From a bacterium (lineage in GTDB: Bacteria; Muiribacteriota; Ozemobacteria; Ozemobacterales; Ozemobacteraceae): a DNA stretch of 36,223 bases. Position numbers and translations under genes: made by a program. Below are positions 4,319-36,140 of the stretch, in pieces (position 1 is the first letter of the stretch; every line of letters starts with the position of its first letter). Where the stretch lies: assembly GCA_016192885.1 (NCBI GenBank), contig JACPTH010000181.1, positions 1 to 36,223 of the forward strand, in the 5' to 3' direction. The notes beneath the pieces are model-generated. The model was not told where the DNA came from. It saw only the letters and a list, made by a program, of their open reading frames with translations, and searched no databases.

Positions 4319-4320
4319 AT

Positions 4321-7083: not shown

Positions 7084-7096
7084 GAGGAACTTGAGC

Positions 7097-7918: not shown

Positions 7919-7925
7919 TTTTTTT

Positions 7926-7957: not shown

Positions 7958-7962
7958 TAAAA

Positions 7963-9531: not shown

Positions 9532-9544
9532 GGGAGAATTATTG

Positions 9545-13876: not shown

Positions 13877-13879
13877 GGC

Positions 13880-14491
13880 GTGGTTATCCCTCTACCAACT
13901 GTCATTTTCGTGGTTGGATTGGCGGGCACAGGCAAAACAACATTTTCAAAGCTTCTTGCAGAAAAATTAGAAAACTCTTTCTTGATTAACAAGGATTCGA
14001 TTAACAACTCATTCCTTATTAAAAAATTCATTGTTGAGGATCGGCCCCCAAAAATACTGAAAAATCTTTCGTATTGTCGCGCAAGTAAATTTTATTTCGA
14101 CCATGTTAGAATGCAGTCATACCTTTGCATGTTAAATTTGGCTGCGGATAATCTAAAAATCGGAAAACACCCAATTCTAGACGGGAATTTTACCAAGGAA
14201 ATAATTAACGGCAACTTTAAGCGAAATTTTCTCCCTTTTTTTGAAAAAACACCCGGGCACTCCGCGAAAGTGATTCTTTGTACAAGCGAGGAGAAAACCC
14301 TGAAAGCGAGGATTCTCTCTAGGGCTTTAAAAAGAGATCGGGAAAAAACGCTTTCAGCGGAATCTTGGAGCGATTTTTTTTCTCAACAAACCGCCATTGA
14401 AATCGAATTGGAAGGTGTTGACCATTTTAAGATCGAAACAACGACGGATTCTAAACAGGTTTTAGAAAAAGCGTTGAGCTTTATTCTGTAG
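13880..14491 (+). CDS. P-loop ATP-binding protein (small kinase-like, AAA_33/zeta-like)
   Basis: GTG start 4 nt after the previous stop. The Walker A motif VGLAGTGKTTFSKLLAEKL is at the N-terminus. 203 aa. Confidence 0.6.
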   Translation: MVIPLPTVIFVVGLAGTGKTTFSKLLAEKLENSFLINKDSINNSFLIKKFIVEDRPPKILKNLSYCRASKFYFDHVRMQSYLCMLNLAADNLKIGKHPILDGNFTKEIINGNFKRNFLPFFEKTPGHSAKVILCTSEEKTLKARILSRALKRDREKTLSAESWSDFFSQQTAIEIELEGVDHFKIETTTDSKQVLEKALSFIL

Positions 14492-14504
14492 GTGATTTTC
14501 CTTC

Positions 14505-17721: not shown

Positions 17722-18894
17722 TTGTTGAAAATGCTAAAATACTGGCTAATGTCTGCTAATTCTTCATCGTTTAATGAACCCGCAATTCTCTTTCGGATTC
17801 AAAACTACAACTGCGTGAGCGCCGGAGCGCTCTTGGGCGCTTGCCAAGTTCATGGAGTTTCAGATATTCGCCCATTATTTTGGAAGGGGGATTCGCATAT
17901 TCCCAAGGACGTATTTTCCAACAGGGTCTTGTTTATCTATTCGTTCATGGCTTTGCACGTTAAATCCGTTGAAAATGAAATACAGACTTTAAAAAAACTG
18001 GCAAGGCAGGGAGTAGACGGGGAGGGCGAGGAAATTTTCCCTTGGATAACCGAAAGGTGGTTAAAGGAAAAACTATCTCTTGGGTTGATTACATCCAAGA
18101 GGGATTCTGTGGATATTGACCGATATCCGGGATTCCATTTTTCAACAGGTTATCTTCCTCCCATTGAGATCACCCGAGGATGCACTTATTGTTGTACTTT
18201 TTGCGCCGTTCCGCGACTCTATGGCGGAACCATCAGGCATAGGTCTGTCGCGGGAGTGGTGTCGATTGTTGAATCATATCTGAGATTAAAGCCCGATCGA
18301 AAGCGAATAAAATTCTTATCGCCAAACGCATTTGCGTATGGGTCCAAAGATGGAAGAACCCCAAATTTTTCGGCCCTTCATGAGCTTTTGTCTGCCTTAA
18401 AAAAAATGGGAGTTCCCGAAATATGCCTTGGGTCTTTCCCTTCCGAAGTTCGCCCCGATTTTGTCACAAAAGAGTTACTAGACCTGGTAGTTCCATTTTT
18501 GTCGAATCGTGTTATAGTGATGGGAGCTCAAACTTACAACGATGAAAAACTTAAAGAAATGCATCGATATCACGATAGAGCCGATGTTGAAAAAGCAATT
18601 CAACTTCTTCGAAAATATGGATTTGTTCCTCATGTGGATTTCATCATCGGACTTCCGGGAGAGACCTTCGAGGAACAAGATAAATTGTTGACTTTTTTTG
18701 AAACTCTGGTTCGAGAGTATGGTATCCGAATCCATTTGCATACTTTTATGCCTCTTCCTGGTACGCCTTGGGAGCGCTATTCTCCGGCGCCTATAGGTGA
18801 AACAGCAAGGCGCGGAATTCAAAATCTTTCAAGCGCAAAGGTTCTTGATGGCTGGTGGGATCATCAGATTGCATACGGAAGGGGAAAACTATGA
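17722..18894 (+). CDS. radical SAM protein (function unknown)
   Basis: CxxxCxxC cluster motif in RGCTYCCTFCAVP, with an upstream N-terminal region and a downstream TIM-barrel-like region. The true start may be ATG 17731 or 17749. Confidence 0.8.
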   Translation: MLKMLKYWLMSANSSSFNEPAILFRIQNYNCVSAGALLGACQVHGVSDIRPLFWKGDSHIPKDVFSNRVLFIYSFMALHVKSVENEIQTLKKLARQGVDGEGEEIFPWITERWLKEKLSLGLITSKRDSVDIDRYPGFHFSTGYLPPIEITRGCTYCCTFCAVPRLYGGTIRHRSVAGVVSIVESYLRLKPDRKRIKFLSPNAFAYGSKDGRTPNFSALHELLSALKKMGVPEICLGSFPSEVRPDFVTKELLDLVVPFLSNRVIVMGAQTYNDEKLKEMHRYHDRADVEKAIQLLRKYGFVPHVDFIIGLPGETFEEQDKLLTFFETLVREYGIRIHLHTFMPLPGTPWERYSPAPIGETARRGIQNLSSAKVLDGWWDHQIAYGRGKL

Positions 18895-19814
18895 CAGGAA
18901 TTCATACCCCCTTGGAAAATATTCAGCCAAAGAGAAAAAACTGGATTTTTCGGCACCGAAGGAAAATTTACGGTGGCATGGTTTGGGGAAGCTTTTTCAT
19001 TTGCTTGTACATTTTAAAAACTTTTATATCACTAATGCTACTGACTTTTATCATGAGCTATTCAATCAATTCCCTTGTTAATTTCTTGCGCTCAAAATTT
19101 TCGTGGCCTCGCTGGGGAATTATTTTGGTGGTTTACGGGGTTCTTGGAATTTTAATGCTTGGAGTTGGAATGATAGTCATTCCGAATGTATATCATGAAG
19201 GACAAACGCTTTCACGGGAGATTCCCCAGGTTTTACTCAGGGAAATTCCCAAAGCAAAAGAAAAGCTCCCAGAACAACTTCAGGTTTTGGTCAATTCTCC
19301 GGAGTTTTCCAAATTTATTGAAGGGCTAGACCTCGAAAACACGGTCCGAGAGAATTTTGGGGACATTTTACAAGCCGTTACTGTTTTTTTTCGTGATTTA
19401 CTGCGGATTTCTTTTTACTTGATTCTTTCGATGATTTTTAGCTTTCTGATTCTCTGGGACCTAGAAAGGCTAAAACGCGATGTAAAAAGTTTAAGAGACA
19501 CAAGGCTTCAAGGGGTGTACCATACCATAACTCCCCATTTGGTGCGACTAAGCGATATACTTGGAAAAGCTTTTGAGGCGCAAATTGTTATTGCCTTTGC
19601 AAATACCGTTCTAACGTTAATCGGTTTAACGTTTTTAGGAATCCCGAGCAAGCTCTTTTTAAGCGTTTTTGTTTTTTTGTGCAGTTTTATCCCCGTTTTA
19701 GGAGTTTTTATCTCCACCATCCCAATTTGCTTGGTCAGAAAAAACTTCAAAAGTCCGCTTGACCAGAGATTAATTCCATGTTACTGTACTTTTCGAGATT
19801 GGGGAGTCGTCTAA
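18891..19814 (+). CDS. AI-2E (PerM/UPF0118) family transporter, C-terminally truncated
   Basis: The ATG overlaps the radical SAM stop (ATGA). TM layout and the FIPVLGVFISTIP motif fit AI-2E transporters. The last two or so TM segments and the conserved C-terminus are missing. The reading frame runs into tRNA-Gln (19800). Confidence 0.65.
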   Translation: MTGIHTPLENIQPKRKNWIFRHRRKIYGGMVWGSFFICLYILKTFISLMLLTFIMSYSINSLVNFLRSKFSWPRWGIILVVYGVLGILMLGVGMIVIPNVYHEGQTLSREIPQVLLREIPKAKEKLPEQLQVLVNSPEFSKFIEGLDLENTVRENFGDILQAVTVFFRDLLRISFYLILSMIFSFLILWDLERLKRDVKSLRDTRLQGVYHTITPHLVRLSDILGKAFEAQIVIAFANTVLTLIGLTFLGIPSKLFLSVFVFLCSFIPVLGVFISTIPICLVRKNFKSPLDQRLIPCYCTFRDWGVV

Positions 19815-19873
19815 TGGTAGGACGACAGACTCTGGATCTGTCTATTGGGGTTCGAGTCCCTGCTCCCCAGCCA
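19800..19873 (+). tRNA. tRNA-Gln (anticodon CUG), CCA encoded
   Basis: Manual cloverleaf. Acceptor tggggag/ctcccca, D stem gtct/ggac, anticodon stem acaga/tctgt with loop ctCTGga, T loop ttcgagt, discriminator G plus CCA. It has the U1-A72/G73 pattern typical of bacterial tRNA-Gln. Confidence 0.9.
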
Positions 19874-19879
19874 AGGATT

Positions 19880-19953
19880 GGCCCCATGGTGTAACCGGCT
19901 AACACGCAGCCCTCTCAAGGCTGAGAGCGGGGGTTCGAGTCCCCCTGGGGCTA
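19880..19953 (+). tRNA. tRNA-Glu (anticodon CUC), CCA not encoded
   Basis: Manual cloverleaf. Acceptor ggcccca/tggggct (G1-U72), D stem gtgt/acac, anticodon stem cagcc/ggctg with loop ctCTCaa, T stem ggggg/ccccc with loop ttcgagt. A T-run follows. Confidence 0.87.
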
Positions 19954-20207
19954 TTTTTTATTTGTTCAAGAAAATCTTATTACGTCTAGTAACCCGCAAT
20001 TAACCCGCTGATGAAGCGGGTTATCCCCGAAACTCCTGTCTAACAAAATCCAAGCTTTTTCTATGTTCCCCCTGAAACTATTTATAAAATTTAAAGATGT
20101 TCCATGATGCCGCTATTTTGATTAGGGTTTGAAATTATCTCAAAAAACCATTTGGGTAAATTGAAATCGACCACTTTTCGTTAACTGTCCCCCAACCAAC
20201 GGTTTGC

Positions 20208-20635
20208 TCATGCCGCCTTGGTAATGTCTACGATGATGCGTGATCCAAGAGGTTTCAGAACTTCCTCAATGCTTCCGATATGGGTTCTATGCTTGGGATT
20301 CAGCATTCTTTGAAGAGTGGTAAGCGGCAATCCAAGTTTTTTGGATAACGCAAGGCAACTTAATCCGGTATTCTTCCATGCAATATATAGAGCAACTTTG
20401 GCGGCAATAAGAGAGCTTGGAGAAACCATGTGGATTGCTTTTTTGAAGGCATGGGAATTTCTTCCACGAGTTTTATTCTTACTGCCAGAGCTTCATCAAG
20501 GCAATCAATAGCTTCCATTAAAGCTTCCTGAATAGATTTGCCATCGGTGACGGCTCCCTTGATGTCAACGAATTTTACCAGAAAATATCCGGTCTTATCT
20601 TTGGAGATGGTAACCGGAAACGAAAGCCTATTCAT
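20208..20635 (-). pseudogene. hicB: HicB-family antitoxin, frameshifted (N-terminal HicB fold and C-terminal HTH are in different frames)
   Basis: ORF 20360-20635 encodes MNRLSFPVTISKDKTGYFLVKFVDIKGAVTDGKSIQEALMEAIDCLDEALAVRI..EEIPMPSKKQ. ORF 20208-20429 in another frame encodes (H)MVSPSSLIAAKVALYIAWKNTGLSCLALSKKLGLPLTTLQRMLNPKH (Xre-type HTH). The junction lies at or near a 6-nt homopolymer (20439-20444). Confidence 0.75.
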
Positions 20636-20640
20636 CTCCT

Positions 20641-20858
20641 TTATCTCAAAATATCCTTTTTGGTTATTCCCAAATCAGTAAGCATAGCCATTAGAATGCC
20701 TTCCCCAATTTCCTTGGTTCGATCTTTTACGTGGTTCGATTAAATCCAAAGAATATCGTTCCGTGACTTCCCTTCCCATGAATTTTATTGAAACAAAAGG
20801 AAATACCTCTTTCCTTGGAAAGTTTTTTTATTCTTCTCAGGAATTCATTACCATTCAT
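20641..20858 (-). pseudogene. hicA: HicA-family toxin, frameshifted
   Basis: My translation of the minus strand gives MNGNEFLRRIKKLSKERGISFCFNKIHGKGSHGTIFFGFNRTT then a stop. The frame offset by one missing nucleotide continues VKDRTKEIGEGILMAMLTDLGITKKDILR then a stop. Together these form a full-length HicA-like sequence (GKGSHG ... LGI). The gene ends 5 nt before the hicB start. The shift lies around 20727-20735. Confidence 0.75.
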
Positions 20859-21184
20859 AGAGAAAAGTTAATACATATTTGTGTTAATGTCGAATTAGCG
20901 CCAGGAAAATTTTCGGTATATCCTTGGGTACATTTTTGGGATTGCAAAAAATGAAATTACTGCCGACGCCGCTTGGAGAGGCAAATTCGTTAGCCCTTGA
21001 GGCTACATCAAATCACATTCGCTCGTTTTGCAAATGAACGAGTCCTTCTTTTGAACCAACATTCCATCCTATAATAATCACTTTTTTTCTATCTCTTTGC
21101 TAAAAATTGGTTGGAAAATGTGGTATTCTCTCCCATTGAATTTAAACTCGTTTATGATTGACTAAAAAAATGGGGTTTTGACTC

Positions 21185-25032: not shown

Positions 25033-25192
25033 ATGTTAGAATAAGTTGTCTTCGAAAGAAGTATCCACGTAAGTTGCTCGTAATTGTGGTTCATAGCTGT
25101 GTAAGTGTGCTCTGCGTGCTTGAACAGGCGTGAGGCAGGTTGGGGTCCTTGTGTGGGTCTTTTTTCTGAGAAATTTATTCAGGAGGACTCCA

Positions 25193-25396
25193 ATGGAGCG
25201 TGGTAGTGTTAAATGGTTTAATGAATCTAAAGGTTACGGTTTTATTACCCGGGAGAACGGCGAAAAGGACGCATTTGTTCATCATCGTTCGATTTTAGGG
25301 ACTGGTTTTAAGACCCTTCAAGAAGGCCAGCAAGTTCAATTTGATGTTGAAGCCGGCCCAAAAGGTCCCCAGGCGATTAACGTAACCAAAGTATAA
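25193..25396 (+). CDS. cspA: cold-shock protein (CspA family)
   Basis: [34 protein letters not shown] contains the RNP1 (KGYGFI) and RNP2 (VFVHH-like) motifs. CAGGAGGA lies upstream of the ATG at 25193. The tracked ORF's 5' extension is probably not translated. Confidence 0.95.
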
Positions 25397-25411
25397 TAAA
25401 CCAAGGACGCA

Positions 25412-25442
25412 AAAAGTGCCCGGAAAAGGGCACTTTTTTTTT
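25412..25442 (+). terminator. rho-independent terminator of cspA
   Basis: Stem agtgccc/gggcact with loop ggaaaa, followed by a run of 9 T. Confidence 0.8.
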
Positions 25443-25596
25443 GCTCCTAAAGAGTTTATAATCGTGTTTCATTTAATGACCGTTGAAGAGTTTTTTCCGG
25501 CATTTCTAACAAGGCGTGTCGCCGTGAAGCGGAAGGATCGAATTTTGCAAGTCTCTCTTTTTAAAAAAACATTATTTTGTTAGGAGAAGTTTCCAA

Positions 25597-26205
25597 ATGA
25601 GATTTAGTTTGATGTTGCTTTCAATTGTTTTTTTGTTTTTTAGCGGGTGTTTGACTTCCCAAGAGAAAGAAAGAAAGAAATGGGCCAAACCTCCCGAAAT
25701 GAAGATCAATTTAGAAAAAAACTACTTTGCTCTTCTAAAGACAAATTTGGGTGAAATTAAAATCGAACTATTCTCTAAAGAATCTCCTAAAACGGTGAAC
25801 AATTTTGTATTTCTTGCAAGCGAAAGCTTCTATGATGGCACAGTGTTTCACCGGATTATCAAAGATTTCATGATCCAAGGGGGAGATCCTTTGGGAACCG
25901 GCGAAGGAGACCCCGGGTACAGCTTTAATGATGAACTTCCCGTAAAACACTCTTACGAACCTGGAATCATTGCAATGGCCAACGCTGGCCCAAACACACA
26001 AGGCAGTCAATTTTTCATCTGCAACGGTGAGGGTGCAAAAAAGCTTGATTCAAGACCCAATTACACCCAATTTGGAAAAGTGATTGAGGGAATGGATGTG
26101 GTTTTGAAAATTTCCTCGGTGGATGTGGGTCCAAGCGTATCGGGAGAGCTTAGCAAACCCAAGGATCCACCGGTGTTACAAAAAGTTACCATTGAAGAAA
26201 AGTGA
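25597..26205 (+). CDS. cyclophilin-type peptidyl-prolyl cis-trans isomerase, lipoprotein
   Basis: Motifs: FHRIIKDFMIQGGDP, GIIAMANAGPNTQGSQFFI. Lipobox FFSGC at the end of the signal peptide. Confidence 0.93.
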   Translation: MRFSLMLLSIVFLFFSGCLTSQEKERKKWAKPPEMKINLEKNYFALLKTNLGEIKIELFSKESPKTVNNFVFLASESFYDGTVFHRIIKDFMIQGGDPLGTGEGDPGYSFNDELPVKHSYEPGIIAMANAGPNTQGSQFFICNGEGAKKLDSRPNYTQFGKVIEGMDVVLKISSVDVGPSVSGELSKPKDPPVLQKVTIEEK

Positions 26206-26272
26206 GTTTTACTTTAAAAGTGAATAACTCGAATGGTTGGAATTTTTTTAAACTTTCATTAAATACTCGCTC

Positions 26273-27148
26273 ATGAAAAGTGGAATTGTTTTAGTTGTTT
26301 CCGCGAGCCTTTCGAACGATGACCTATGTTCTTCTCCTTTCAATTTGCACCCCGAAGAATTTTTTCTTGCGAGTTATGATTCGTTGTGTTTCCTAGGGTT
26401 CTCACGGTTTTGTTTGGTTATCCTTCACGAGCCCGACCCTGATATTTGCACAAAACTTTCGTTGGGAATTCGGGATTCAAGACTTCTTGAAGGCATGTGG
26501 AACTTGGTTGCTCTTTCCAATTCACCCGTGCGAATTATTTCTTCGCCTAAAAACCGTCCTTTAAAATCTTTGCTTGACCTAGGCGTTGAGCCATTTTCTC
26601 CGTCAGAAGTTCGGGATTTTTTATCATCTCTTTCGTCCCCAAAAAATTCCGCTTCGTTTAACCCAAAAAAGCAACCCTTGCTTACCGCTGACGATATCCG
26701 TGAAATGCACAAAATGGGAAAACTGCGATTAGAACCAGGGGCTCTCCTTACCGAATGGGCAAAAGAGGTTGCAGTTACCTTAGGAATTAGTTTGCCTGAA
26801 AAGCAAGCCAATTTTGTTCTGGCTTTTTTGAGCACTCCTACCCGTGCTTCCCTGATAGATTTATCGGAAAAAATTCACTCTTGGAGTCGCGCGAATCCAA
26901 AACTCCTTTTTGTGGTTCCATCCCCACAAATTCCCCTTTTTCGTGAACTTTTTCCGTCAATTTCTTCGCGCCTAGTGGCCCCCGCCTTTCATTGGGCGGA
27001 ATCCGGAGCCTTTACCGGAGAGGTTTCGCTTGGAATGATTCAAGATGCGGGGTGTTTTGGAGCAATTATGCCGCATTCCAAGCCTTTTTTTACAAAAGAG
27101 CAGATTCTCCAAATTGCGTCGCATTGGAGCATTCTCATCGATAATTAA
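26273..27148 (+). CDS. BMC-locus protein: unrecognised N-terminal region, EutQ-N-terminus-like motif, partial triosephosphate-isomerase-like segment
   Basis: C-terminus: LLFVVPSPQIPLF...LVAPAFHWAESGAFTGEVSLGMIQDAGCFGAIMPHSKPFFTKEQ. It aligns by eye with TIM residues about 35-120 (vaiaPP...lGAQNv....SGAFTGEtS..ML.D.G..yviiGHSERR). Residues about 134-175 (LLTADDIREMHKMGKLRLEPGALLTEWAKEVAVTLGISL) resemble the EutQ N-terminal module. Confidence 0.6.
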   Translation: MKSGIVLVVSASLSNDDLCSSPFNLHPEEFFLASYDSLCFLGFSRFCLVILHEPDPDICTKLSLGIRDSRLLEGMWNLVALSNSPVRIISSPKNRPLKSLLDLGVEPFSPSEVRDFLSSLSSPKNSASFNPKKQPLLTADDIREMHKMGKLRLEPGALLTEWAKEVAVTLGISLPEKQANFVLAFLSTPTRASLIDLSEKIHSWSRANPKLLFVVPSPQIPLFRELFPSISSRLVAPAFHWAESGAFTGEVSLGMIQDAGCFGAIMPHSKPFFTKEQILQIASHWSILIDN

Positions 27149-27255
27149 GCTCATAGACCTTCGGAATTCGAGCGCGTTCTCGGTCGGTGATAGAGAAGCG
27201 GTTTTTGTTTCAATTGATGACGTTGAGAAGGGGAGAGTTTCAGGATGGCTGAACG

Positions 27256-27900
27256 ATGATTGATGAAAATACTGTAAAAGTCATAGTAGCCCAAGTAATA
27301 GAGCAAATAGCTTTAAAGGAGCGTGCTCGTTCGGGGGCTGTAACGGTTGGGATAAGCAATAGGCATATCCACCTTTGCGAAGCTGATTTAGAGTCCCTTT
27401 TCGGCACTGGGCATAAGTTGAAAACCTTTAGAGAGCTTTCACAACCGGGCCAATTTGCCGCCGAGGAATGCCTTACCGTCGCGGGGCCTAAGGGCGTTAT
27501 CGAAAAAGTTCGAATCCTTGGGCCAATCCGAAAGCAAACCCAGGTGGAAATCTCGATTACAGACTCCTTTTCGTTGGGAATTCCTCCTATTGTTCGCGAT
27601 TCCGGAGATGTTAAAGGAACTCCGGGATGCGTTCTTATCGGCCCCAAAGGTGCGGTAAATCTTAAGGAAGGCCTTATTGTTGCTTCCCGTCATATCCACC
27701 TTAATTCGAAGGATGCCGAAAAGTTTGGTTTGAAAGATATGGATCGAGTATCGGTGAAGAGTTTTGGGTCGAGGTCCCTGATTTTCAATAATGTTCTTGT
27801 CCGAGTCAGCGATCAGTTTGCCTTAGACTTTCACCTAGATTGCGATGAAGCCAACGCAGCATGTTTGAGGAACGGCGACAAACTTGAAATTATTGGTTAA
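27256..27900 (+). CDS. pduL: phosphate acyltransferase PduL
   Basis: Motifs: VGISNRHIHLCEADLESLFG, QPGQFAAEE, VRILGPIRKQTQVEIS, ASRHIHLNSKDAEKFG, VLVRVSDQFALDFHLDCDEANAA. The amphipathic N-terminus ENTVKVIVAQVIEQI looks like an encapsulation peptide. Confidence 0.93.
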   Translation: MIDENTVKVIVAQVIEQIALKERARSGAVTVGISNRHIHLCEADLESLFGTGHKLKTFRELSQPGQFAAEECLTVAGPKGVIEKVRILGPIRKQTQVEISITDSFSLGIPPIVRDSGDVKGTPGCVLIGPKGAVNLKEGLIVASRHIHLNSKDAEKFGLKDMDRVSVKSFGSRSLIFNNVLVRVSDQFALDFHLDCDEANAACLRNGDKLEIIG

Positions 27901-27951
27901 TTCAGAAAATGAATTGTTTATTTTTAGAATTTATCTTCTTAGGAGGTTTTC

Positions 27952-28257
27952 ATGCAAGAGGCTCTCGGAATGATTGAGACAAAAGGTTTGGTGGCAATGA
28001 TTGAAGCAAGCGACGCGATGGTAAAGGCGGCCAATGTGCGATTGGTCGGTTGGGAAAAAATCGGGTCGGGATTTGTCACGGCAATAGTTCGCGGGGATGT
28101 CGCCGCGGTAAAAGCCGCTACTGATGCCGGCGCGGCTGCCGCAAAAAAAATCGGAGAATTAGTATGCGTCCATGTAATTCCGCGCCCGCACACAAATCTC
28201 GACGAAGTTCTTCCGATTCGCGAAAACACAACCTCAACCAGTACGACTAAAAAATAA
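27952..28257 (+). CDS. BMC-H shell protein (PduA/EutM-type hexamer)
   Basis: [27 protein letters not shown]...[24 protein letters not shown]...[17 protein letters not shown]. Confidence 0.96.
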
Positions 28258-28274
28258 GCCTTTCGGAATTCTAG

Positions 28275-28547
28275 ATGATTCTTGGGAAAACTTGCGGAAC
28301 TGTTGTTTGTACCCGTAAAGATGAAAGACTTAACGGGATGAAATTTTTAATTGTCGAAGAATTAGCGGTAAATACTCAAAAACCAACCGGGAACCATCAT
28401 ATCGCGGTTGATGCCGTCGGCGCCGGAGCATCCGAGACGATTTTGATGGTTTCCGGAAGTTCCGCGCGCCTTACAGGCCGAACAATAAATTGTCCTGTCG
28501 ATGCCGCAATTTGCGGAATCGTTGATGAAATTACCATGGACAAGTAA
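28275..28547 (+). CDS. BMC-P vertex protein (EutN/CcmL/PduN family)
   Basis: MILGKTCGTVVCTRKDERLNGMKFLIVEEL...AVDAVGAGASETILMVSGSSAR. Confidence 0.93.
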   Translation: MILGKTCGTVVCTRKDERLNGMKFLIVEELAVNTQKPTGNHHIAVDAVGAGASETILMVSGSSARLTGRTINCPVDAAICGIVDEITMDK

Positions 28548-28674
28548 AAAGGAATTTGCGAACGGAGAGAAAGCTCTTCAAAGTTTGATCTTTCTCGAAT
28601 AATAAATGAATAGCGCGAATTGCCGGCATGGTAAAAGTTGATTCATTTTTTTCTTGAACGGGAGATAAGCGGAT

Positions 28675-29963
28675 ATGCCGTTTTCAAAAGACGAAGTTAA
28701 TCTCATCGTTTCGGAAGTTCTTAAGCATATTAATACTTTGCAATCGACCAAGGTTGCCGCGGTAGAAAGCGCCTGCGAGAACGGAATTTTTGAGAACATA
28801 GATGACGCCATTCGATCCGCCGCGGAAGCCCAAAAGAAACTTGTAACCCTTTCTCTAAGTACTAGGTCAGCTATTATCGAAAATATGCGGAAGCGGGTTT
28901 TCGGCAAAATAGAAGAACTTTCCCGACTTGGGGTTGAAGAAACAGGCTATGGACGCGTGGAAGATAAGATTCAAAAAAACACGTTGGCCGTAAAAAAAAC
29001 TCCGGGAATTGAAGATCTTCAACCTGTCGCTTATTCCGGAGATCATGGGTTGACTCTCGTTGAACAAGCTCCTTACGGCGTTATCGGAGCGATTACTCCC
29101 TCAACCAACCCTTCCGAAACGGTAATTTGCAATTCGATCGGGATGATAGCCGCCGGCAATTCGGTCGTTTTTGCCCCGCATCCGGCCGCTGCTCGCGTGA
29201 GTCATTTGGCCGTTACTACTCTTCATGAAGCCATTGTCGAAGCAGGGGGCCCGCGAAACCTCGTCGTTTCAGTTTCAAAGCCAAGCATTGAATCCGCCCA
29301 AGTTCTAATGACCCATCCTGGAATCCGTCTTTTGGTGGTTACGGGCGGGCCTGCGGTCGTTGCGGCCGCCGCAAAAAGCGGCAAAAGATTTGTTGCCGCG
29401 GGGCCGGGAAACCCGCCTGCCGTTGTCGACGAGACCGCAGATCTTAAGAAAGCCGCCCGGGACATAGTCTCCGGCGCAACTTTAGATAACAACGTTTTAT
29501 GCATTGCCGAAAAAGAGATTATCGTGGTTGAATCGGTTGCGGATGAATTAAAAAGGAACTTGCTAGTATCGGGCGCTTATGAAGCTACCGCTCGTGAAAT
29601 CATGATGCTCGAAAAGCTGGTAATTGATCCAAAGACACACGGGCCTAACCGCAAATTTGTCGGGAAAAACGCCTCCGTGATTTTGGATGCTCGGCGGTAG
29701 ATTTGGCGGTAAAAGTCGAACACGGTTACCATCATACCGCGGTTATGCATAGCAAGAATTTAGACAATTTGCATTTAATGGCAAGTCGATGCAATTGTTC
29801 CATTTTTGTAAAGAATGGGCCTAGTTACGCAGGTTTGGGGTTGGGCGGCGAAGGTTTCACAACTTTTACCATTGCCTCTCCGACCGGGGAAGGCCTTACC
29901 AGCGCACGCTCGTTTACAAGGCAGCGGCGTTGCGTTTTGGTTGATTATTTCAGAATCGTGTGA
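28675..29963 (+). pseudogene. CoA-acylating aldehyde dehydrogenase (PduP/EutE type), disrupted by an internal deletion plus frameshift
   Basis: ORF 28675-29700 matches EutE/PduP from the N-terminal encapsulation-like helix (DEVNLIVSEVLKHI) through PSTNP, GNSVVFAPHPAA, GPGNPPAVVDETADL and the catalytic NNVLCIAEKE. It stops at ...FVGKNASVILDARR. ORF 29703-29963, in another frame, carries the family C-terminus: (AVD)LAVKVEHGYHHTAVMHS...SIFVKNGPSYAGLGLGGEGFTTFTIASPTGEGLTSARSFTRQRRCVLVDYFRIV. About 40 residues, including the ELMMPVLPVVRV-type segment, are absent. Confidence 0.85.
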
Positions 29964-31270
29964 AAAATAAATTTCCCGATAAGGTTGAGGATTTAGGCAT
30001 TGTTGGCTGTGGTGGCGCGGGGTTTCCCACTCACGTAAAGCTTTCCGCCAAAGATGTTACTTGTTTTATTGTGAATGCCGCGGAATGTGAGCCTTTGCTC
30101 CACAAAGATAAGGAAATCCTAAAACACCATACCGCGGATTTTTTTAAAGGTTTGGAAACCGCGATGAGTATGACCGGCGCCAAAGTAACCCATATTGCGG
30201 TGAAGGAAAAGTATTCCGAGCTCATTTCCCAATTGAAATCATTTTGCTCGAATCCAAAAATTTCGGTTTTTCCGCTCGGAGATTTTTATCCGTCGGGTGA
30301 CGAGTTCGAACTTGTGTATGAAATCACTAAAAAACTAATACCTTTTGGCGGGATTCCTTTGCAAATCGGTTGCGTTGTAAATAACGTTGAGACTCTTCTC
30401 CACCTTGGCAGAGGAAAACCTTTTACCTCAAAGTTTTTAACGGTAGCAGGAGCGGTTCCAAAACCGGTTTCCATCGAAGTTCCTCTTGGAATTACCGTTC
30501 GCGAAGCTATCTCACTCTCCGGTCAAATCGATCTTTGCGACATGGCGATTATTGACGGAGGTCCGATGATGGGGAGGATAGTTTCACCTGAAAACCTAGT
30601 CACAAAAACTTGTGGAGGCCTTGTGGTTCTTCCAAAGGAACACCCGTTGATCGTAAAAATGACCCGACCGGCTCGCCGGAATCAGCTTATTGGGCGGGCA
30701 GGTTGCGATCAATGTACGGATTGCACCGAGCTTTGTCCAAGAAGGTTGCTAGGCTATCCAATTCGACCTCATAAAGCTATGCGCACAAATTTGTTTACCC
30801 GCGGGGATTCAAGCGATTATTCCCTTGAGTCTATTTTTTGTTCAGAATGCGGAGTTTGTTCGTTATTTGCATGCCCTGAAGCTCTTCCTCCGCGCGAGGT
30901 GACTATTATTGCCAAAAGATATCATCTTAGTCATGGAGCAAAACTTTCCGATTGGCAGGGCGTTCCGCAGGTTCATCCAATGCGGCCAGGTCGAAGAATC
31001 GGAATTCAAAGATTAATTAATTGCCTCGGACTAACCGAATTCGATCGCAAAGCCCCGCTAATACAGGCAAAAATTGACCCGCCACACGTGCGATTGCCCT
31101 TAAAAATGAATTTGGGGGCCCCAGCTCAACCGTCCGTAAAAGTAGGGGATGATGTTACAACCGGTCAGCTAATTGGGATTATTCCCGAACGATCTCTCGG
31201 AGCCAACTTACACGCTTCGATTAGCGGGCGGGTAGTTTCGATTGATGATGCGATAACCATAGAGGCGTAA
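29960..31270 (+). CDS. PduS/RnfC-like flavin and Fe-S oxidoreductase
   Basis: The GTG overlaps the preceding stop (GTGA). GIVGCGGAGFPTHVKL (RnfC/NuoF-type nucleotide site). Two ferredoxin-type motifs, GCDQCTDCTELCP and CSECGVCSLFACP. The C-terminus is a barrel-sandwich-like segment, VKVGDDVTTGQLIG...SISGRVVSID. Confidence 0.85.
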   Translation: MKNKFPDKVEDLGIVGCGGAGFPTHVKLSAKDVTCFIVNAAECEPLLHKDKEILKHHTADFFKGLETAMSMTGAKVTHIAVKEKYSELISQLKSFCSNPKISVFPLGDFYPSGDEFELVYEITKKLIPFGGIPLQIGCVVNNVETLLHLGRGKPFTSKFLTVAGAVPKPVSIEVPLGITVREAISLSGQIDLCDMAIIDGGPMMGRIVSPENLVTKTCGGLVVLPKEHPLIVKMTRPARRNQLIGRAGCDQCTDCTELCPRRLLGYPIRPHKAMRTNLFTRGDSSDYSLESIFCSECGVCSLFACPEALPPREVTIIAKRYHLSHGAKLSDWQGVPQVHPMRPGRRIGIQRLINCLGLTEFDRKAPLIQAKIDPPHVRLPLKMNLGAPAQPSVKVGDDVTTGQLIGIIPERSLGANLHASISGRVVSIDDAITIEA

Positions 31271-31275
31271 GCAGA

Positions 31276-31857
31276 ATGAAAATTCCATCAAGTAAAAGTG
31301 ATAGTTTCCCATTTAAAGCCATTGGATTGATTGAGTTATCCAGCATTGCAATGGGTTTTTTAACCGCCGATGCGATGTTAAAGGCAGCATCGGTTGAAAT
31401 TGTTCTTTCAAGAACCGTCTGTCCCGGAAAATACATCGTTCTAATTTGGGGAGATGTTGCCGCCGTAGAAGCAAGCGTTAGGGCCGGAGTTTCGGTAAGC
31501 CAAGGATATCTTGTGAACGAATTGGTCATTCCCAATATTCACCCCCAAATTTTTCCGGCAATTACCGCCACGAACCCGGTAAAAACTACCGACGCGTTGG
31601 GAGTTCTTGAAACATTTGATGTCGTGTCCACAATCTTAGCCGCTGATGCGTCCGCAAAAGCCGCGAACGTAACTCTTTGCGAAATTCGCCTCGCTATGGC
31701 CCTTGGTGGAAAGGCATTTTATTCCTTTACAGGCGACGTTGCCGCGGTAGAAGCCGCAATCGCCGCCGGAAGAGAGGTTTTGGAAAGCAACGGTCTTATC
31801 GTAAATTGGGTTGTTATTCCAAGGCCTCGTGAAGAACTTTTTGAAGAGTTTGTCTAA
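31276..31857 (+). CDS. BMC-T tandem-domain shell protein, PduT-like
   Basis: Two BMC domains (AIGLIELSSIAMGFLTADAMLKAASV and ALGVLETFDVVSTILAADASAKAANV). The TVCPGKY motif (Cys codon 31420-31422) matches the PduT pore Fe-S ligand position. Confidence 0.9.
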   Translation: MKIPSSKSDSFPFKAIGLIELSSIAMGFLTADAMLKAASVEIVLSRTVCPGKYIVLIWGDVAAVEASVRAGVSVSQGYLVNELVIPNIHPQIFPAITATNPVKTTDALGVLETFDVVSTILAADASAKAANVTLCEIRLAMALGGKAFYSFTGDVAAVEAAIAAGREVLESNGLIVNWVVIPRPREELFEEFV

Positions 31858-32315
31858 TGCCGAAAATAATTCTTGGAGCTGATCACGGAGGTTTTTCCCA
31901 TAAGGAAGAATTAAAACAGCATTTGATTTCTTCGGGATTCGTGATTGAGGACATTGGCGCTCATTCCACCGAGCCGGTTGATTATCCGGATATCGCTTTA
32001 TTGGTCGGGCTTGCCGTTTCGCGAAATCCTCAAGCATTGGGGATAATCATTGATGGAGCGGGAATAGGCTCATGCATGGCCGGCAACAAAATCCCCGGGG
32101 TGCGTGCGGCCTGTTGTAACGATCTTTATACGGCCCGGAATAGCCGAGAGCATAATCACGCCAACGTTCTCACCATGGGAAGCATGGTAATCGGGATTGG
32201 CCTTATGAAGCAAATAGTCGATCTTTGGATAACCACCCAACCCGCTCCCGGTCGCCATGCGAATCGAGTCGATAAGATCATGAAAATTGAATCGGCTTTA
32301 AAAACCCTTGAATAA
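31857..32315 (+). CDS. rpiB: ribose-5-phosphate isomerase B / sugar-phosphate isomerase (RpiB/LacAB family)
   Basis: Motifs: IILGADHGGFSHKEEL, GIGSCMAGNKIPGVRAACC, ARNSREHNHANVLTMG. The start overlaps the BMC-T stop (TAATG). Confidence 0.92.
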   Translation: MPKIILGADHGGFSHKEELKQHLISSGFVIEDIGAHSTEPVDYPDIALLVGLAVSRNPQALGIIIDGAGIGSCMAGNKIPGVRAACCNDLYTARNSREHNHANVLTMGSMVIGIGLMKQIVDLWITTQPAPGRHANRVDKIMKIESALKTLE

Positions 32316-32360
32316 AAGTTAAGGTTAGCAAATTAGAAAAATTGCCCTGAGGAAATTATT

Positions 32361-33512
32361 ATGCGAGCGATTTGTATCGTATTAGATAGCGTCGGAATTG
32401 GCGCAATGCCGGATGCCGCCGAATATGGAGATGAAGGCTCCGCGACTTTGCCCAACCTTTCAAATGCCGCGGGGGGCCTAGAACTTCCTACTTTGGAGCG
32501 GCTAGGTTTGGGAAAAATAGCGCCTATAAAAGGCGTATCCGGAGAAATCCAAGCTGAAGGTTCGCACGGAAAGATGAGGGAGCTTTCGCCGGGAAAGGAT
32601 ACGACCACGGGCCATTGGGAGATGATGGGGATAAAACTGGAACATGCTTTTCCCTTGTTTCCGGACGGGTTCCCGAAAGCTTGGTTGACAAAATTCGAAC
32701 GCGCCATAGGCGTGGAAACATTAGGAAATTACGCCGCCTCCGGAACCGAAATAATAGCGCAGTTGGGCGATGAACATGTAAAAACGAGAAAACCGATAGT
32801 GTATACCTCGGCGGATTCGGTGTTTCAAATCGCCGCTCACGAGGAAATAATCCCCTTGGAAGAACTGTACAAGATTTGCAAAATAGCCCGTGAAATGCTT
32901 GTCCCCCCGGAAATGGGAGTTGGGAGAGTAATCGCCCGACCGTTCATAGGAACATCCGGCGGCTATAAGCGCACCGCTCACCGGCATGATTTTAGCCTTC
33001 TTCCGAGTCAAGACACTTTGCTTGATGTCCTCAATAAGGGCGGGGCGGTTACCTATGGTATCGGAAAAATTTACGATATTTTTGCCGGAAAGGGCGTAAA
33101 CAAGAGCGTTTCAACGGAAGGAAACGTTGCCGGGATGAATAAAACATCCGAAGCTTTAGATCTTGTACGGGAAGGTTTCATTTTCACAAATCTCGTCGAT
33201 TTCGACATGCTGTTTGGCCACCGGCGAGATGTCCTTGGCTACAAAAAAGCCCTGGAAGGATTTGACCAGTGGTTATCCGGTTTTCTTAAAAAATTAGATG
33301 AAAATGATTTGTTAATTATTACCGCCGATCATGGTTGCGACCCGACTTTTCGGGGTTCCGACCACACCAGGGAATATGTTCCCCTTTTATCGTTTAGAAA
33401 AGGTTTCCAAGGGAAAGACTTAGGAGTCCGAAACGGATTTTGGGACGTCGGAGCTTCCATTGCGGCTCATTTAAAGATCCCGTTTGATCGTGGAACTTCG
33501 TTCGTTTTCTAA
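32361..33512 (+). CDS. deoB: phosphopentomutase
   Basis: Motifs: RAICIVLDSVGIGAMPDAAEYGDEGSATL, TTGHWEMMG, VYTSADSVFQIAAHEE, ITADHGCDPT. Confidence 0.95.
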   Translation: MRAICIVLDSVGIGAMPDAAEYGDEGSATLPNLSNAAGGLELPTLERLGLGKIAPIKGVSGEIQAEGSHGKMRELSPGKDTTTGHWEMMGIKLEHAFPLFPDGFPKAWLTKFERAIGVETLGNYAASGTEIIAQLGDEHVKTRKPIVYTSADSVFQIAAHEEIIPLEELYKICKIAREMLVPPEMGVGRVIARPFIGTSGGYKRTAHRHDFSLLPSQDTLLDVLNKGGAVTYGIGKIYDIFAGKGVNKSVSTEGNVAGMNKTSEALDLVREGFIFTNLVDFDMLFGHRRDVLGYKKALEGFDQWLSGFLKKLDENDLLIITADHGCDPTFRGSDHTREYVPLLSFRKGFQGKDLGVRNGFWDVGASIAAHLKIPFDRGTSFVF

Positions 33513-33802: not shown

Positions 33803-34648
33803 CTAAGCATATCGAAAATCCACGGGGAAAAACGGATTTTTCCTTAAAAACTCGAAGTCAAAAATTTTTGATAAAGTTCTTAAAAGCTCCTGAGTAATTC
33901 TGTGCTCAGGGTGAATTTGAAAACATCGTCCAAGTTCAGGTTCAATTTTTTCCAAAATTTGAGCTGTGGAAGACTTGGACTTTTGACAAAGTAAAACTCG
34001 GCTCTTAATAAGATTGCTTAAAATTCGCAAAGACGCAGGGGCTTCATTGATCGCAAGTTCCAACCACCGAATACTTCCTTCAAGATTTCCCCTAAGTTTT
34101 TCTATTTCCTCTATATTATTCATGGCCAACGCCGAATGAGGATTTAATGACAGCTCCTCTTGAAAAAATCGAACGGCATTAAAACGATTTTCATTGAAAG
34201 AAAAACCAGCCAAAGCAAGCTTTTGATAGGCTACCCCAATATTGAAGGCGACTTGGTGGAGGTTGGGGTTTTTCTTCCTAAGAATACAAAGAATTTCGAG
34301 GGCATTTTCGAATTTGCATTCATCCATTAAAGAAACGGCTTTTTCAAGAATGCCTGAATCGTCAATGTACCCTTCCATTGGAACTACCGCAAAAGGCGCG
34401 AAATCGGGAAGAAGGAAAAACGCCAAATTAAATCGGCCCTTTGAGCGTTCTAAGCAGTCATAAAAACTTTTTATTCCATCATTAACCAACGTAAATTTAA
34501 TCTCGATGTCCTCTTCAAGGCAAACATTGGTTAAACGTAAAAGATCTTTCTCAAAGGGTCCAATTGGATTTTTCATTGCATTTGCGAAGTCTTTTTTTAA
34601 CCGTAACTCAAAAATATTTCCTTTCTTGGAGCTTGAGAGCGGAAGCAT
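33803..34648 (-). CDS. TPR-containing hypothetical protein
   Basis: 281-aa ORF with TPR-like repeats (ALEILCILRKKNPNLHQVAFNIGVAYQKL; AVRFFQEELSLNPHSALAMNNIEEI; SIRWLELAINEAP). It overlaps the upstream gene by 41 nt. The start is uncertain. Confidence 0.6.
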   Translation of the reverse strand: MLPLSSSKKGNIFELRLKKDFANAMKNPIGPFEKDLLRLTNVCLEEDIEIKFTLVNDGIKSFYDCLERSKGRFNLAFFLLPDFAPFAVVPMEGYIDDSGILEKAVSLMDECKFENALEILCILRKKNPNLHQVAFNIGVAYQKLALAGFSFNENRFNAVRFFQEELSLNPHSALAMNNIEEIEKLRGNLEGSIRWLELAINEAPASLRILSNLIKSRVLLCQKSKSSTAQILEKIEPELGRCFQIHPEHRITQELLRTLSKIFDFEFLRKNPFFPVDFRYA

Positions 34649-36140
34649 GTTTTTGATTTGTACAAATCCCGATCAAGGGGGCGGATAAATGCTTAGGATC
34701 ATCAAAAAACAATGCGATCGGGAAACTTTCAGGTCCAAAAGGAAACGAATTTTCCGAACATATGTTGGCAATCAGGGATTTTTCCAACGATTTTTCAAGA
34801 TTCGATACGACATTTTTCTCAATTTCGAATTCGGATATTGCCATTTGAAGCGGCTGTATTTTCGAATTTTCTTGGGTTTCCGAGATCGAATCAACTGGCA
34901 ATTTCTCATTTAGAAGGGTTTTCAAAAAATCATCGTCGAGGCGAAGCGCTCTTCCTACTTTCATTAACAGGCTGGTCTCCGCTTCTTCGATCTTTCCGTC
35001 TTCAAGTATTTTTACAAAGACTCTTCTCAAAAAGCGTTCAGGTTGAAAACTGGTGCTCACGGGGGGGAATTTACCCGCCTTTAATTCTTCGGAAACCTGG
35101 ATAAACAAGCTTTGGTAAGTGTCATACGGGATTTCCAGAAAATCTCTTAGATCATGGAGAATAGCTTGTTCGCTTGAGGTAAGAATATCGTCTCCAAGAA
35201 TTTCAATAAGAGCTTGCCTATAAATTTCATTTACGTCCAGAGATTTTGAATTGCGAAAAAGTTTTCGGCTTAAATCAGCGGGAAAAGTGCCATCGGATTC
35301 CAGACGTTTGAGGATTTCTTCAATAAACTTCTGAAATCGCGAGCCATCAGATTTATGGAAATGTTTTGTAAAAAATTCAAGCAAATTCTTCTTCTTAAAA
35401 TTATCCGAACTGAAAAAAGAATCTTTAAGCGTTGGAAGAAAACAGGTAAGAAGGGAAAGGCTTTCAAGAAGATCTTGGTAATATGATGCAAGTGAAAGAC
35501 ACTCATGAAGAAGCGAAAAAAACAATTCTTCACGGTGATTTTTAGCAAGGTAAACCAGTTTTATCATGGAGTCCCGGATGAAAAATTCCAAGAAAGCCGT
35601 ATTTGATCGCATTGCCGCCCATTTTTGGAATCCCGGGGAAGGGAAAAGGGTTTCGATTGCCGAAACGTGGATTTTATAAAGGTTCTCCCAGGCAACTATT
35701 CGGCGGTTCCATTGATCAAAATAGCTAACGCAAAAAATATCCTGAATTTGAAAAAGCTTCCGGACGTGACGGGAGAATTCATCAAGATCCGCATGAAATG
35801 ACGCAAATTGAACGAATAGTTCAAGAAGCTCAAAATATGCGGGGAAGATTTTTCTGGAATCTTCTAAACTTAGTTGAAGGGCGACTGCAAAAGCATTTCC
35901 CACTACATCTAACTCTGATTTAGTCTTGATGGTTTTGGAAAGATCCAGAGTTTTAATTTTTTCAAGAAGGAAATTCGCTTCGGCGTCATTTTCATCAATA
36001 AGAGCTTGAAACAAATGGTTAAATTGCGGTCTAAATCGGCTTGGAAGCATTGTAAGGGCGGAAAATGGATCTAGGCGGAAAACCGAAAACATCTTCGAAA
36101 CGGTTGGGTGGGAAGAAAAAAGCTCCGCTTTTTCCGTCAT
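34608..36140 (-). CDS. hypothetical helical protein with two TerB-like motifs near the C-terminus
   Basis: 510-aa ORF. Its ATG overlaps the stop of an upstream partial ORF (ATGA). The segments GDDILTSSEQAILHDLRDFLEIP and LEDGKIEEAETSLLMKVGRALRLDDDFL resemble the DG.i...E...L pattern of TerB/DjlA-N type domains. This is a weak inference. Confidence 0.6.
   Translation of the reverse strand: MTEKAELFSSHPTVSKMFSVFRLDPFSALTMLPSRFRPQFNHLFQALIDENDAEANFLLEKIKTLDLSKTIKTKSELDVVGNAFAVALQLSLEDSRKIFPAYFELLELFVQFASFHADLDEFSRHVRKLFQIQDIFCVSYFDQWNRRIVAWENLYKIHVSAIETLFPSPGFQKWAAMRSNTAFLEFFIRDSMIKLVYLAKNHREELFFSLLHECLSLASYYQDLLESLSLLTCFLPTLKDSFFSSDNFKKKNLLEFFTKHFHKSDGSRFQKFIEEILKRLESDGTFPADLSRKLFRNSKSLDVNEIYRQALIEILGDDILTSSEQAILHDLRDFLEIPYDTYQSLFIQVSEELKAGKFPPVSTSFQPERFLRRVFVKILEDGKIEEAETSLLMKVGRALRLDDDFLKTLLNEKLPVDSISETQENSKIQPLQMAISEFEIEKNVVSNLEKSLEKSLIANICSENSFPFGPESFPIALFFDDPKHLSAPLIGICTNQKHASALKLQERKYF

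Follow-up and report, generated by a model that had tools for sequence, protein, structure and literature searches.

Bacterial microcompartment (BMC) loci of the sugar-phosphate-utilising (SPU) class have one universal signature enzyme, a DeoC-type deoxyribose-5-phosphate aldolase (DERA), which is the source of the aldehyde (Dwyer, Sutter and Kerfeld 2024, PMC11585597). Within this class, subtype SPU7 comprises eight loci from Cloacimonetes, Riflebacteria, Wallbacteria and Candidatus Ozemobacter sibiricus (Sutter et al. 2021, Supplementary Data 2, PMC8217296). Its main locus possesses a green-clade BMC-P shell vertex protein and a PduS/T pair, grey and orange BMC-P proteins are found with a pfam01791 DERA at a satellite site, and both the aldehyde dehydrogenase (AldDH) and the phosphotransacylase (PTAC) bear N-terminal encapsulation peptides (PMC8217296). 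The shell colour clades of the subtype include P_fadedGreen2 and Ts_darkGreyBlue, a GrpU-type BMC-H(p) satellite occurs in half of the genomes, and the tree entries OZSIB_0722 (BMC-P) and OZSIB_0719 (BMC-T) are labelled “SPU7 (main)” (PMC8217296). Here, a group of nine closely packed plus-strand genes (26273-33512) is described from contig JACPTH010000181.1 of assembly GCA_016192885.1, the whole 36,223-nt stretch of which is referred to as the window. With a probability of roughly 85%, these genes form the main locus of a microcompartment of the SPU7 type, in a bacterium that is a low-GC relative of the Riflebacteria/Ozemobacteraceae.

The assignment is carried by synteny. In Ca. O. sibiricus (locus L084), the window’s nine genes occur in identical order, with a BMC-P of 94 aa and a BMC-T of 186 aa that fit OZSIB_0722 and OZSIB_0719 in size and position; identity between the two loci ranges from 40% for the first gene to 94% for BMC-H, and GC content is 44% for the window versus 65% for the Ca. 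O. sibiricus locus. The same nine-gene order is common to all eight related loci (L001, L081-L084 and L087-L089), which derive from Riflebacteria/Ozemobacteraceae and were examined with flanks of at most 10 kb on either side, shorter where the contig ends; a few of them have one or two genes inserted before the last, and phosphopentomutase is the last same-strand gene in 8/8 Riflebacteria loci. Together with the definition of Sutter et al. 2021 (PMC8217296), this synteny bears out the SPU class proposed in the initial annotation and refines it to SPU7. All nine genes of that annotation were found in place and on the plus strand with Pfam and NCBIfam models (Table 1). Features of the class seen in the window are an RpiB-type protein (pfam02502) and an acylating AldDH with an encapsulation-peptide-like helix (its gene disrupted), and those of the subtype are N-terminal extensions on both AldDH and PduL and a sole tandem-BMC protein that is PduT-like and retains the CPGK cysteine. 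Finally, among the best 120 of about 1,200 BMC-P candidates, the nearest named homologues (Riflebacteria/Ozemobacteraceae, 76% identity; O. sibiricus, 70%; Wallbacteria, 61-63%) all come from SPU7 hosts, which serves as a proxy for shell-clade placement, and all 120 are main-locus-type orthologues with no satellite-type BMC-P paralogue among them.

The initial annotation had also noted the lack of DERA, of a diol or ethanolamine lyase, of a glycyl-radical enzyme and of a class II aldolase, and this held across the window. Specifically, Pfam searches of every sizeable ORF of the 36 kb found no PF01791, class II aldolase, glycyl-radical enzyme, EutBC or PduCDE, and E. coli DeoC gave no tblastn match in the window, the same query finding DERA in two SPU1-like loci. 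Likewise, no PF01791 gene lies within 10 kb on either side (or to the contig end) of any of the nine loci. Because SPU7 has its DERA at a satellite site, the absence of the enzyme from the window is an expected hallmark of the subtype (PMC8217296). Of the two options left by the initial annotation, a signature step that is unresolved or a DERA encoded elsewhere, it is the second that agrees with the published satellite DERA of SPU7 (PMC8217296). By the same token, the shell set is “minimal” as far as the main locus goes but not beyond it, since the SPU7 description adds satellite BMC-P proteins. The description of SPU as experimentally uncharacterised remains true of SPU7 itself but not of the class, given the work on the DERA and ribose-5-phosphate isomerase (RPI) of SPU6 (PMC11585597) and on the NADH dehydrogenase MNdh (PMC11275729). 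The locus belongs to an already catalogued subtype and, two damaged genes and an odd first gene aside, is unremarkable; what is new is minor, namely the AldDH lesion and first-gene truncation, the nature of the first gene, a clade-wide loss of RpiB residues, and a conserved promoter geometry.

One of the two damaged genes is that for AldDH. Its N-terminal ORF comprises 341 codons and stops at a TAG (29698-29700), and the last 86 codons lie in another frame from 29703, with coverage of the NCBIfam model NF011927 split over the two ORFs. About 41 codons plus 1 nt (~124 nt) are absent at about 29691/29692, which shifts the frame, and residues 394-431 of 5jfl have no counterpart in alignments to the PDB. 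The Riflebacteria orthologues read ...ASVILEA-IGVRVSDDVRMVLCETAPDHPFVVEELLMPVVPIVRVRDVH-AAVDLAVKVE..., and the window runs from ...ASVILDA directly to (S)AVDLAVKVE with a one-base overlap; the microhomology at this junction is only about 6 nt (TCGGCG). The gene is intact in 8/8 relatives (468-475 aa). The displaced C-terminal fragment is 94-95% identical at the amino acid level to L081, L082 and L084 and 73-88% identical to two others, and the N-terminal part is less conserved (61-77% identity to relatives). Since the displaced fragment stays so highly conserved, the lesion either arose very recently or represents a minority variant or an assembly error. A look-up of the exact 341-aa and 436-aa ORF products found no record, a 26-mer flanking the junction had no match in JGI metagenome contigs, and the one independent Logan contig (L086), from the read set SRR12113432 in which this strain is contained, matches the window at 100% identity and ends before the lesion. 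Elsewhere in the window, long ORFs of 922, 856, 623 and 573 aa run without interruption, and the SrfB, TGT and OTCase profiles are matched at full length, showing that the contig is not generally error-ridden or frameshift-prone. The AldDH deletion and the truncation of the first gene, both of which went unremarked in the initial annotation, are either recent lesions or assembly errors; judged from its sequence, the locus as it stands, with AldDH broken and the first gene truncated, could not run the pathway.

The first gene is the second damaged one. At 291 aa, its product falls 50-90 aa below the relatives listed by a word-index search (339-382 aa), and its relatives in a library search measure 345-382 aa, a few shorter entries excepted. 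It is without the family’s conserved LFS...L....CDII block. A stretch immediately downstream, read in another frame, aligns co-linearly at family-profile positions 323-354 (1.3 bits, E 0.03; statistically weak), and the stop of this frame overlaps the PduL start; in L082, the first gene itself overlaps the PduL start by 4 nt. The alignment is suggestive, rather than significant, for an out-of-frame remnant of the first gene’s C-terminus. A simple 1-nt frameshift was considered and rejected, as a “restored” version gains no family-profile score and the alternative-frame remnant scores 1.3 bits, and the gene is reported here as a C-terminal truncation rather than as a proven simple frameshift.

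What this gene encodes has been clarified by remote homology. The initial annotation called the product TIM-like, after triosephosphate isomerase (TIM); the homology is real but partial, and instead of a full TIM there is a eut_hyp-like domain joined to a degenerate TIM part. In a collection of 5.8 billion proteins, the first gene has 18 homologue clusters, every named one of which is from Candidatus Riflebacteria or Ozemobacteraceae. A profile of the N-terminal ~180 aa, searched against 1.84 billion representative proteins, returned 31 matches at E <= 1e-10, nearly all of them full-length family members. A handful of weak matches to this domain are PF02441 flavoprotein-like/TIGR02536 “eut_hyp” proteins, whose C-terminal motif also matches PduM, and hhalign gave 98.2% probability (E 3e-14, 136 columns) for the homology of the N-terminal ~180 aa. 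The shared motif, (L/I)T..D(I/V)R...T.(L/W)A.(D/E).A, appears in the middle of the first gene as LLTADDIR...TEWAKEVA. Unlike the TIGR02536 proteins, the first gene is fused to a TIM remnant and is too diverged for a direct match to curated models: the isolated N-terminal domain and motif have no Pfam or NCBIfam match, and the relationship emerged only by profile search and profile-profile comparison. At the end of an SPU1-like locus (L007:17846-18115, plus strand), a stand-alone 89-aa ORF carries this same PduM/eut_hyp-type motif (...ISESEIKKRL...IVSPLALEWLTLKGIEI), which indicates that SPU loci also carry the motif as a small module of its own.

The remainder of the first gene matches true TIM (PF00121) with 96.7% hhalign probability, over only 85 columns from strand beta2 to about beta5; the same stretch, which includes a GAFTGE(V/I)S motif, was returned by a profile search of the PDB. 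For the closest full-length relative, an AlphaFold2 model (mean pLDDT, the predicted local confidence, of 81) matches only TIMs in Foldseek, and these partially, with ~125 well-superposed columns and TM-scores of 0.25-0.47, such that some 85-125 residues align in all. Scanning genome contigs with the family alignment was swamped by ordinary TIMs, in which the GAFTGE pattern is common, and yielded one true family locus, L001; two of the other matches, L007 and L008, proved to be SPU1-like loci and are used for comparison. The His of the GHSERR motif (the His95 position) is unconserved in the family, and the homology ends before the part of TIM with Glu165, for which there is no aligned counterpart, and the phosphate-binding loops. 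What follows the N-terminal domain measures ~180 aa versus ~250 aa in TIM, too short for a complete barrel, and NCBIfam TIM models score 19-23 bits versus cut-offs of 130-293. The complete (beta/alpha)8 barrel, Lys12, His95, Glu165 and loops 6-8 of an active TIM are not found together in this protein, which both alignment and structural model predict is not a working triosephosphate isomerase; by homology, it joins a BMC accessory domain of the eut_hyp kind to a decayed TIM. That the gene might encode a disguised TIM-barrel aldolase in place of DERA was also considered and rejected, as the homology is to TIM itself and covers half a barrel only, the N-terminal half being eut_hyp-like. The annotated “triose-phosphate isomerase” of SPU7 loci should not be counted as a working TIM in pathway models.

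Neither this gene nor deoB is mentioned in the published SPU7 text (PMC8217296). A partial SPU7-like locus of Candidatus Wallbacteria (L085, CAZJFS010000088.1) has an alpha-amylase/pullulanase-type gene directly before PduL; it is without the fusion gene and without a BMC-H between PduL and BMC-P. Among the loci seen here, the fusion gene is limited to the Riflebacteria branch of SPU7. As to its function, one guess is that it structures or regulates the core of the compartment, a reading suggested by analogy to other inert enzyme relics known from microcompartments. A fuller version of this idea, in which a lineage-specific pseudoenzyme made from a conserved leaderless mRNA acts as a core-organising scaffold or as a triose-phosphate/flavin sensor, and in which the window is an SPU7 locus at the onset of decay, finds proposed parallels in CcmM of carboxysomes and the inert RPI of SPU6, and is considered doubtful.

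The AldDH carries a helix of ~30 aa (SKDEVNLIVSEVLKHI) ahead of its catalytic core, and the PduL domain begins at residue 31, after the helix MIDENTVKVIVAQVIEQI; both helices are encapsulation-peptide-like and conserved in relatives, and their amino acid sequences suggest a helical, amphipathic character. The BMC-H is 85-94% identical to Riflebacteria orthologues. The PduS homologue, of a family now regarded as the NADH dehydrogenase MNdh (PMC11275729), has an FMN/NADH domain (Complex1_51K), an SLBB domain, two 4Fe-4S motifs (Fer4_17) and an RnfC_N barrel, and is 56-61% identical to orthologues at the equivalent position. The BMC-T has the pore motif VCPGK, and the Cys of SRT(V/I)CPGK, whose CPGK part is cited as the Fe-S site (PMC12747264), is conserved in the window and in L081-L084; electron export by MNdh/BMC-T is experimentally supported in other systems (PMC11275729). 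In the RpiB-like protein, IDGAG stands in place of the ICGTG of the E. coli and Clostridium enzymes. Specifically, alignments to 3he8 and 1nn4 place Asp at Cys66 and Ala at Thr68 (E. coli numbering), and an active RPI has both Cys66 and Thr68. The same substitutions occur in L081-L084 and in L007, and the protein is without an N-terminal extension, its ATG overlapping the BMC-T stop codon. In SPU6, an RPI that likewise is without the Cys acts on ribose-5-P hardly or not at all, and the active DERA forms a ~1:1 complex with this catalytically inert RPI, for which a packaging role was proposed and whose role its characterisers termed “enigmatic” (PMC11585597). The absence of both catalytic residues from RpiB throughout the clade parallels the inert SPU6 protein and may be useful for work on SPU7. 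Separately, a BMC-P 61% identical to that of the window was found on a 4.2-kb contig of a “Thermoplasmata archaeon” metagenome-assembled genome (P0068); archaeal microcompartments have been reported only in Hodarchaeales (2025 preprint), and this contig may have been binned wrongly or may be a further archaeal case.

Based on homology and on the literature, the following route may be proposed for a locus of this type, whose predicted fuel is deoxyribose phosphate released by DNA breakdown. A cytosolic phosphopentomutase would convert nucleoside-derived deoxyribose-1-P to deoxyribose-5-P, which would enter a shell built of BMC-H, BMC-T, the BMC-P of the locus and two satellite-encoded BMC-P proteins. 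Inside, satellite-encoded DERA, with its encapsulation peptide, would split deoxyribose-5-P into acetaldehyde and glyceraldehyde-3-P; the acetaldehyde would be oxidised to acetyl-CoA, with formation of NADH, by AldDH, brought there by its N-terminal helix; and PduL, likewise helix-targeted, would form acetyl-phosphate and recycle CoA. An alcohol dehydrogenase is absent from the gene set, and NAD+ would be regenerated by the PduS homologue (MNdh), with electrons leaving through the Fe-S centre of the PduT-like trimer. The RpiB-like protein, without its catalytic Cys, would most likely be a DERA-binding packaging partner and not an isomerase, and the first gene would contribute a non-catalytic eut_hyp-like/TIM-remnant fusion. 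The operon would probably have its own promoter and give a leaderless or near-leaderless mRNA.

This last step stems from a comparison of the sequences upstream of the first gene. The initial annotation proposed a promoter and hinted at a leaderless start. The string itself is present, 7 nt before the ATG at 26273, but was not called by a consensus scan, and the lack of a Shine-Dalgarno sequence before this ATG was confirmed. A -35/-10-like pair with its -10 ending 6-10 nt before the ATG of the first gene was found in 9/9 loci, and the intergenic GC of the relatives that have it spans 27% to 58%. With a spacer of 17 nt, the -35 and -10 hexamers are TTGCAA and TATTAT in L001 (6 nt to the ATG) and L089 (7 nt), TTGCTT and TATTAT in L087 (7 nt), TTGATT and TATCAT in L082 (9 nt) and L084 (7 nt), and TTGCCT and TATATT in L083 (10 nt); L081 has TTGCTC and TATGAT with a spacer of 16 (7 nt), and L088 has TTGCTA and AATATT with a spacer of 18 (7 nt). 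In L083 and L084, the start was moved, post hoc, to the methionine that fits the family alignment; the seven loci with unadjusted starts have 8-9/12 hexamer matches, and their -10 ends 6-9 nt before the ATG. Calculated against all positions of the same locus, their p values run from 0.003 to 0.10, with a Fisher’s combined p of 1e-4 for the first four loci. The hint of a leaderless start is favoured by this shared geometry in nine loci and not by the window’s own weak hexamers. A leaderless or near-leaderless first gene is plausible on these sequence grounds, and the conserved geometry predicts one.

Several points weigh against the reading of this region as the main locus of a functioning, separately transcribed SPU7 system. 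The step that involves satellite DERA and BMC-P rests on the literature (PMC8217296). The AldDH deletion takes out a conserved DHPF..EELLMPV segment and shifts the frame; if it is real, the pathway would be dead in this organism. With regard to transcription, the hexamers of the window are weak, the -10 having only 3/6 matches to the consensus in the scan, and promoter-like sites are no commoner in the region than chance would have it (15 versus 10.6 +/- 4.0 expected from shuffles). The promoter p values of the different loci are not independent, the loci sharing ancestry. Moreover, because about half of the window genes are missing a Shine-Dalgarno sequence, its absence before the first gene says little.

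The damage to two genes also invites the explanation that the window holds an SPU7 homologue under loss, in which the AldDH deletion and first-gene truncation are real mutations and no working compartment is made. This is a serious contender, although its chances are put at somewhat less than even. Two of nine genes are damaged in an assembly that is not generally frameshift-prone, as judged by intact long ORFs elsewhere; the ~6-nt microhomology (TCGGCG) is shorter than a collapse at the k-mer length of an assembler would need; the product of the 341-aa ORF is not recorded as a called protein, whereas its neighbours are, which is consistent with pseudogene treatment by the annotators; and the genomic neighbourhood differs from that of all relatives. 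Set against this, the out-of-frame AldDH fragment is so close to its counterparts in three relatives (94-95% identity) that any lesion must have arisen very recently unless it is a minority variant or an artefact, the remaining genes of the locus are intact, and damage to 2/9 genes inside the locus versus 1 of about 24 outside is not statistically significant.

Other alternatives concern the chemistry, and both are given low odds. The region might encode a metabolosome that is independent of DERA and not of the SPU class, in which an unknown signature enzyme, another aldehyde source, or new sugar-phosphate chemistry of the RpiB-like or TIM-like protein takes the place of the aldolase. The missing PF01791 gene around all nine loci (within 10 kb or to the contig end), a first gene that is confined to the clade and without known function, and the “enigmatic” role of RPI (PMC11585597) could be read in this way; yet satellite DERA and two BMC-P proteins are catalogued in SPU7 genomes (PMC8217296), the His95 position of the first gene is unconserved and its homology stops short of the Glu165/phosphate-loop part, the RpiB-like protein is without catalytic Cys and Thr, and the conserved deoB of the operon points to (deoxy)ribose phosphates, all of which render such a system very improbable. 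It is likewise improbable that the compartment runs in the condensing direction, using scavenged acetaldehyde and glyceraldehyde-3-P to make deoxyribose-5-P and pentose phosphates. DERA catalyses a reversible reaction, this direction has reportedly been proposed for SPU-like loci of Atribacteria, and deoxyribose and ribose phosphates could be connected with the nucleoside and pentose pools through RpiB and DeoB. However, AldDH, PduL and the NADH-oxidising MNdh/BMC-T pair make up an oxidative route that yields acetyl-phosphate, the RpiB-like protein is without its catalytic residues, and the 2024 work has DERA as the aldehyde-generating signature enzyme (PMC11585597). An SPU7 main locus with a satellite DERA working in the cleaving direction is the reading preferred here.

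Table 1. Features of the SPU7-type locus in the window, with the supporting profile matches.
Feature	Position	Strand	Evidence
Candidate sigma-70-type promoter	26237-26265	+	TTGGAA-17-TAAATA, or TTGGAA-16-TTAAAT; -10 ends 7-8 nt before first ATG
First gene, TIM-like, 291 aa	26273-27148	+	PF00121 weak, residues 209-269 = profile 33-92 of 245 (Pfam)
Possible out-of-frame remnant of first-gene C-terminus (...REAVFVSIDDVEKGRVSGWLNDD, then stop)	27149-27263	+	Weak, co-linear family-profile alignment
PduL-type phosphotransacylase (PTAC)	27256-27900	+	PF06130 E 4.7e-79; NF011652 274 bits
BMC-H shell hexamer protein	27952-28257	+	PF00936 E 1.7e-29; EutM equivalog 149.9 bits (cut-off 133)
BMC-P shell vertex protein	28275-28547	+	PF03319 E 2.1e-26; sole BMC-P of window
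CoA-acylating AldDH, disrupted; ORFs 28675-29700 and 29703-29963	28675-29963	+	NF011927 452 bits (profile positions 3-334) and 153 bits (380-465)
PduS homologue (MNdh-type NADH dehydrogenase)	29960-31270	+	PF01512, PF10531, PF13534, PF13375
PduT-like BMC-T, tandem BMC domains	31276-31857	+	Two PF00936, E 8.9e-46; TIGR02526 eut_PduT top model, E 8e-37
RpiB-family protein	31857-32315	+	TIGR01120 148 bits (cut-off 139); PF02502 E 3.5e-47
Phosphopentomutase (DeoB), final cluster gene	32361-33512	+	NF003766 519 bits and TIGR01696 451 bits, both above cut-off

The surroundings of the operon set the window apart from its relatives. In L081-L084 and L087-L089, the upstream flank holds UvrB, a Peptidase_M55 gene and a sigma-54 activator, and the downstream flank holds CarboxypepD_reg-domain genes. 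In the window (flanks 25130-26205 and 33803-36140), cold-shock protein and cyclophilin genes lie upstream, the latter 67 nt from the operon and on the same strand, and two unannotated minus-strand genes lie downstream. Because these flanks differ from those of the relatives, the locus occupies a different genomic context here. In L087, an FGE-sulfatase-domain gene and an unannotated gene (13553-15747, minus strand) are found between RpiB and phosphopentomutase, and owing to the insertion of these two minus-strand genes deoB is not contiguous with the rest of that operon. Farther away in the window, positions 3722-12028 (plus strand) hold a srfABC-like cluster with a 922-aa SrfB that matches PF07520 nearly end to end (E 4e-147), an 856-aa protein of the “putative bacterial virulence factor” family PF10139 (E 6e-140) and, between the two, unannotated ORFs that include a 522-aa protein with a Gly/Ser/Pro-rich low-complexity stretch. 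Finally, in the region 18855-20860, an AI-2E family transporter gene ends early (profile positions 12-248 of 327) and is followed by tRNA-Gln(CTG) at 19800-19873 and tRNA-Glu(CTC) at 19879-19954, and then by small minus-strand ORFs (20208-20858), one of which is weakly HicB-like (Pfam E 7e-4) and has a neighbour that resembles the HicA toxin by eye only; this region looks like a rearrangement or insertion point adjoining tRNA genes.

Taken as a whole, the window adds one diverged, low-GC SPU7 main locus to a widespread class that has barely been studied experimentally, and its broken AldDH is a warning that gene-content calls from contigs of metagenome-assembled genomes can overstate metabolic capacity. 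Among known systems, the closest is the SPU7 locus of Ca. O. sibiricus, with the same nine genes and order, the same N-terminal encapsulation-peptide-like helices and no DERA in the main locus; the window differs from it in its broken AldDH, truncated first gene and lower GC, and in flanking genes that are unrelated to those of the relatives. The SPU1 loci of Elusimicrobia and relatives (L007 and L008) share the order TIM-PduL-BMC-H-BMC-P-AldDH-BMC-T-RpiB with the window and, in L007, the Cys-to-Asp change in RpiB. Unlike the window, they have a full catalytic TIM (NWKMN, GHSERR, EPVWAIGTG) where SPU7 loci have the first gene, are without a PduS homologue and deoB, and continue in the same locus with BMC-P, BMC-P and a DERA that has a long N-terminal extension; by analogy, this P-P-DERA module would show the SPU7 satellite module unseparated. 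In SPU4, eut_hyp and TIM are separate genes (PMC8217296), in contrast to their fusion in the window. The SPU6 system of Chloroflexi resembles the window in its predicted DERA-then-AldDH chemistry and in an RPI without the catalytic Cys, but there DERA belongs to the locus and the encapsulation peptide of AldDH sits at the C-terminus; a BMC-T(dp) is present, a PduS homologue is missing, PduL is usually missing as well, and the RPI bears an N-terminal encapsulation peptide that the RpiB of the window is without (PMC11585597). Finally, the SPU-type microcompartment of Hodarchaeales (bioRxiv 2025.11.08.687404) shares with the window the proposed route, in which a mutase turns deoxyribose-1-P into deoxyribose-5-P and DERA, AldDH, PTAC, MNdh and a CPGK BMC-T take part, and in it a flavoprotein-like domain is attached to a core enzyme, namely DERA itself; unlike the window, it has DERA in the operon and an archaeal host, with Myxococcota as the inferred donor lineage.

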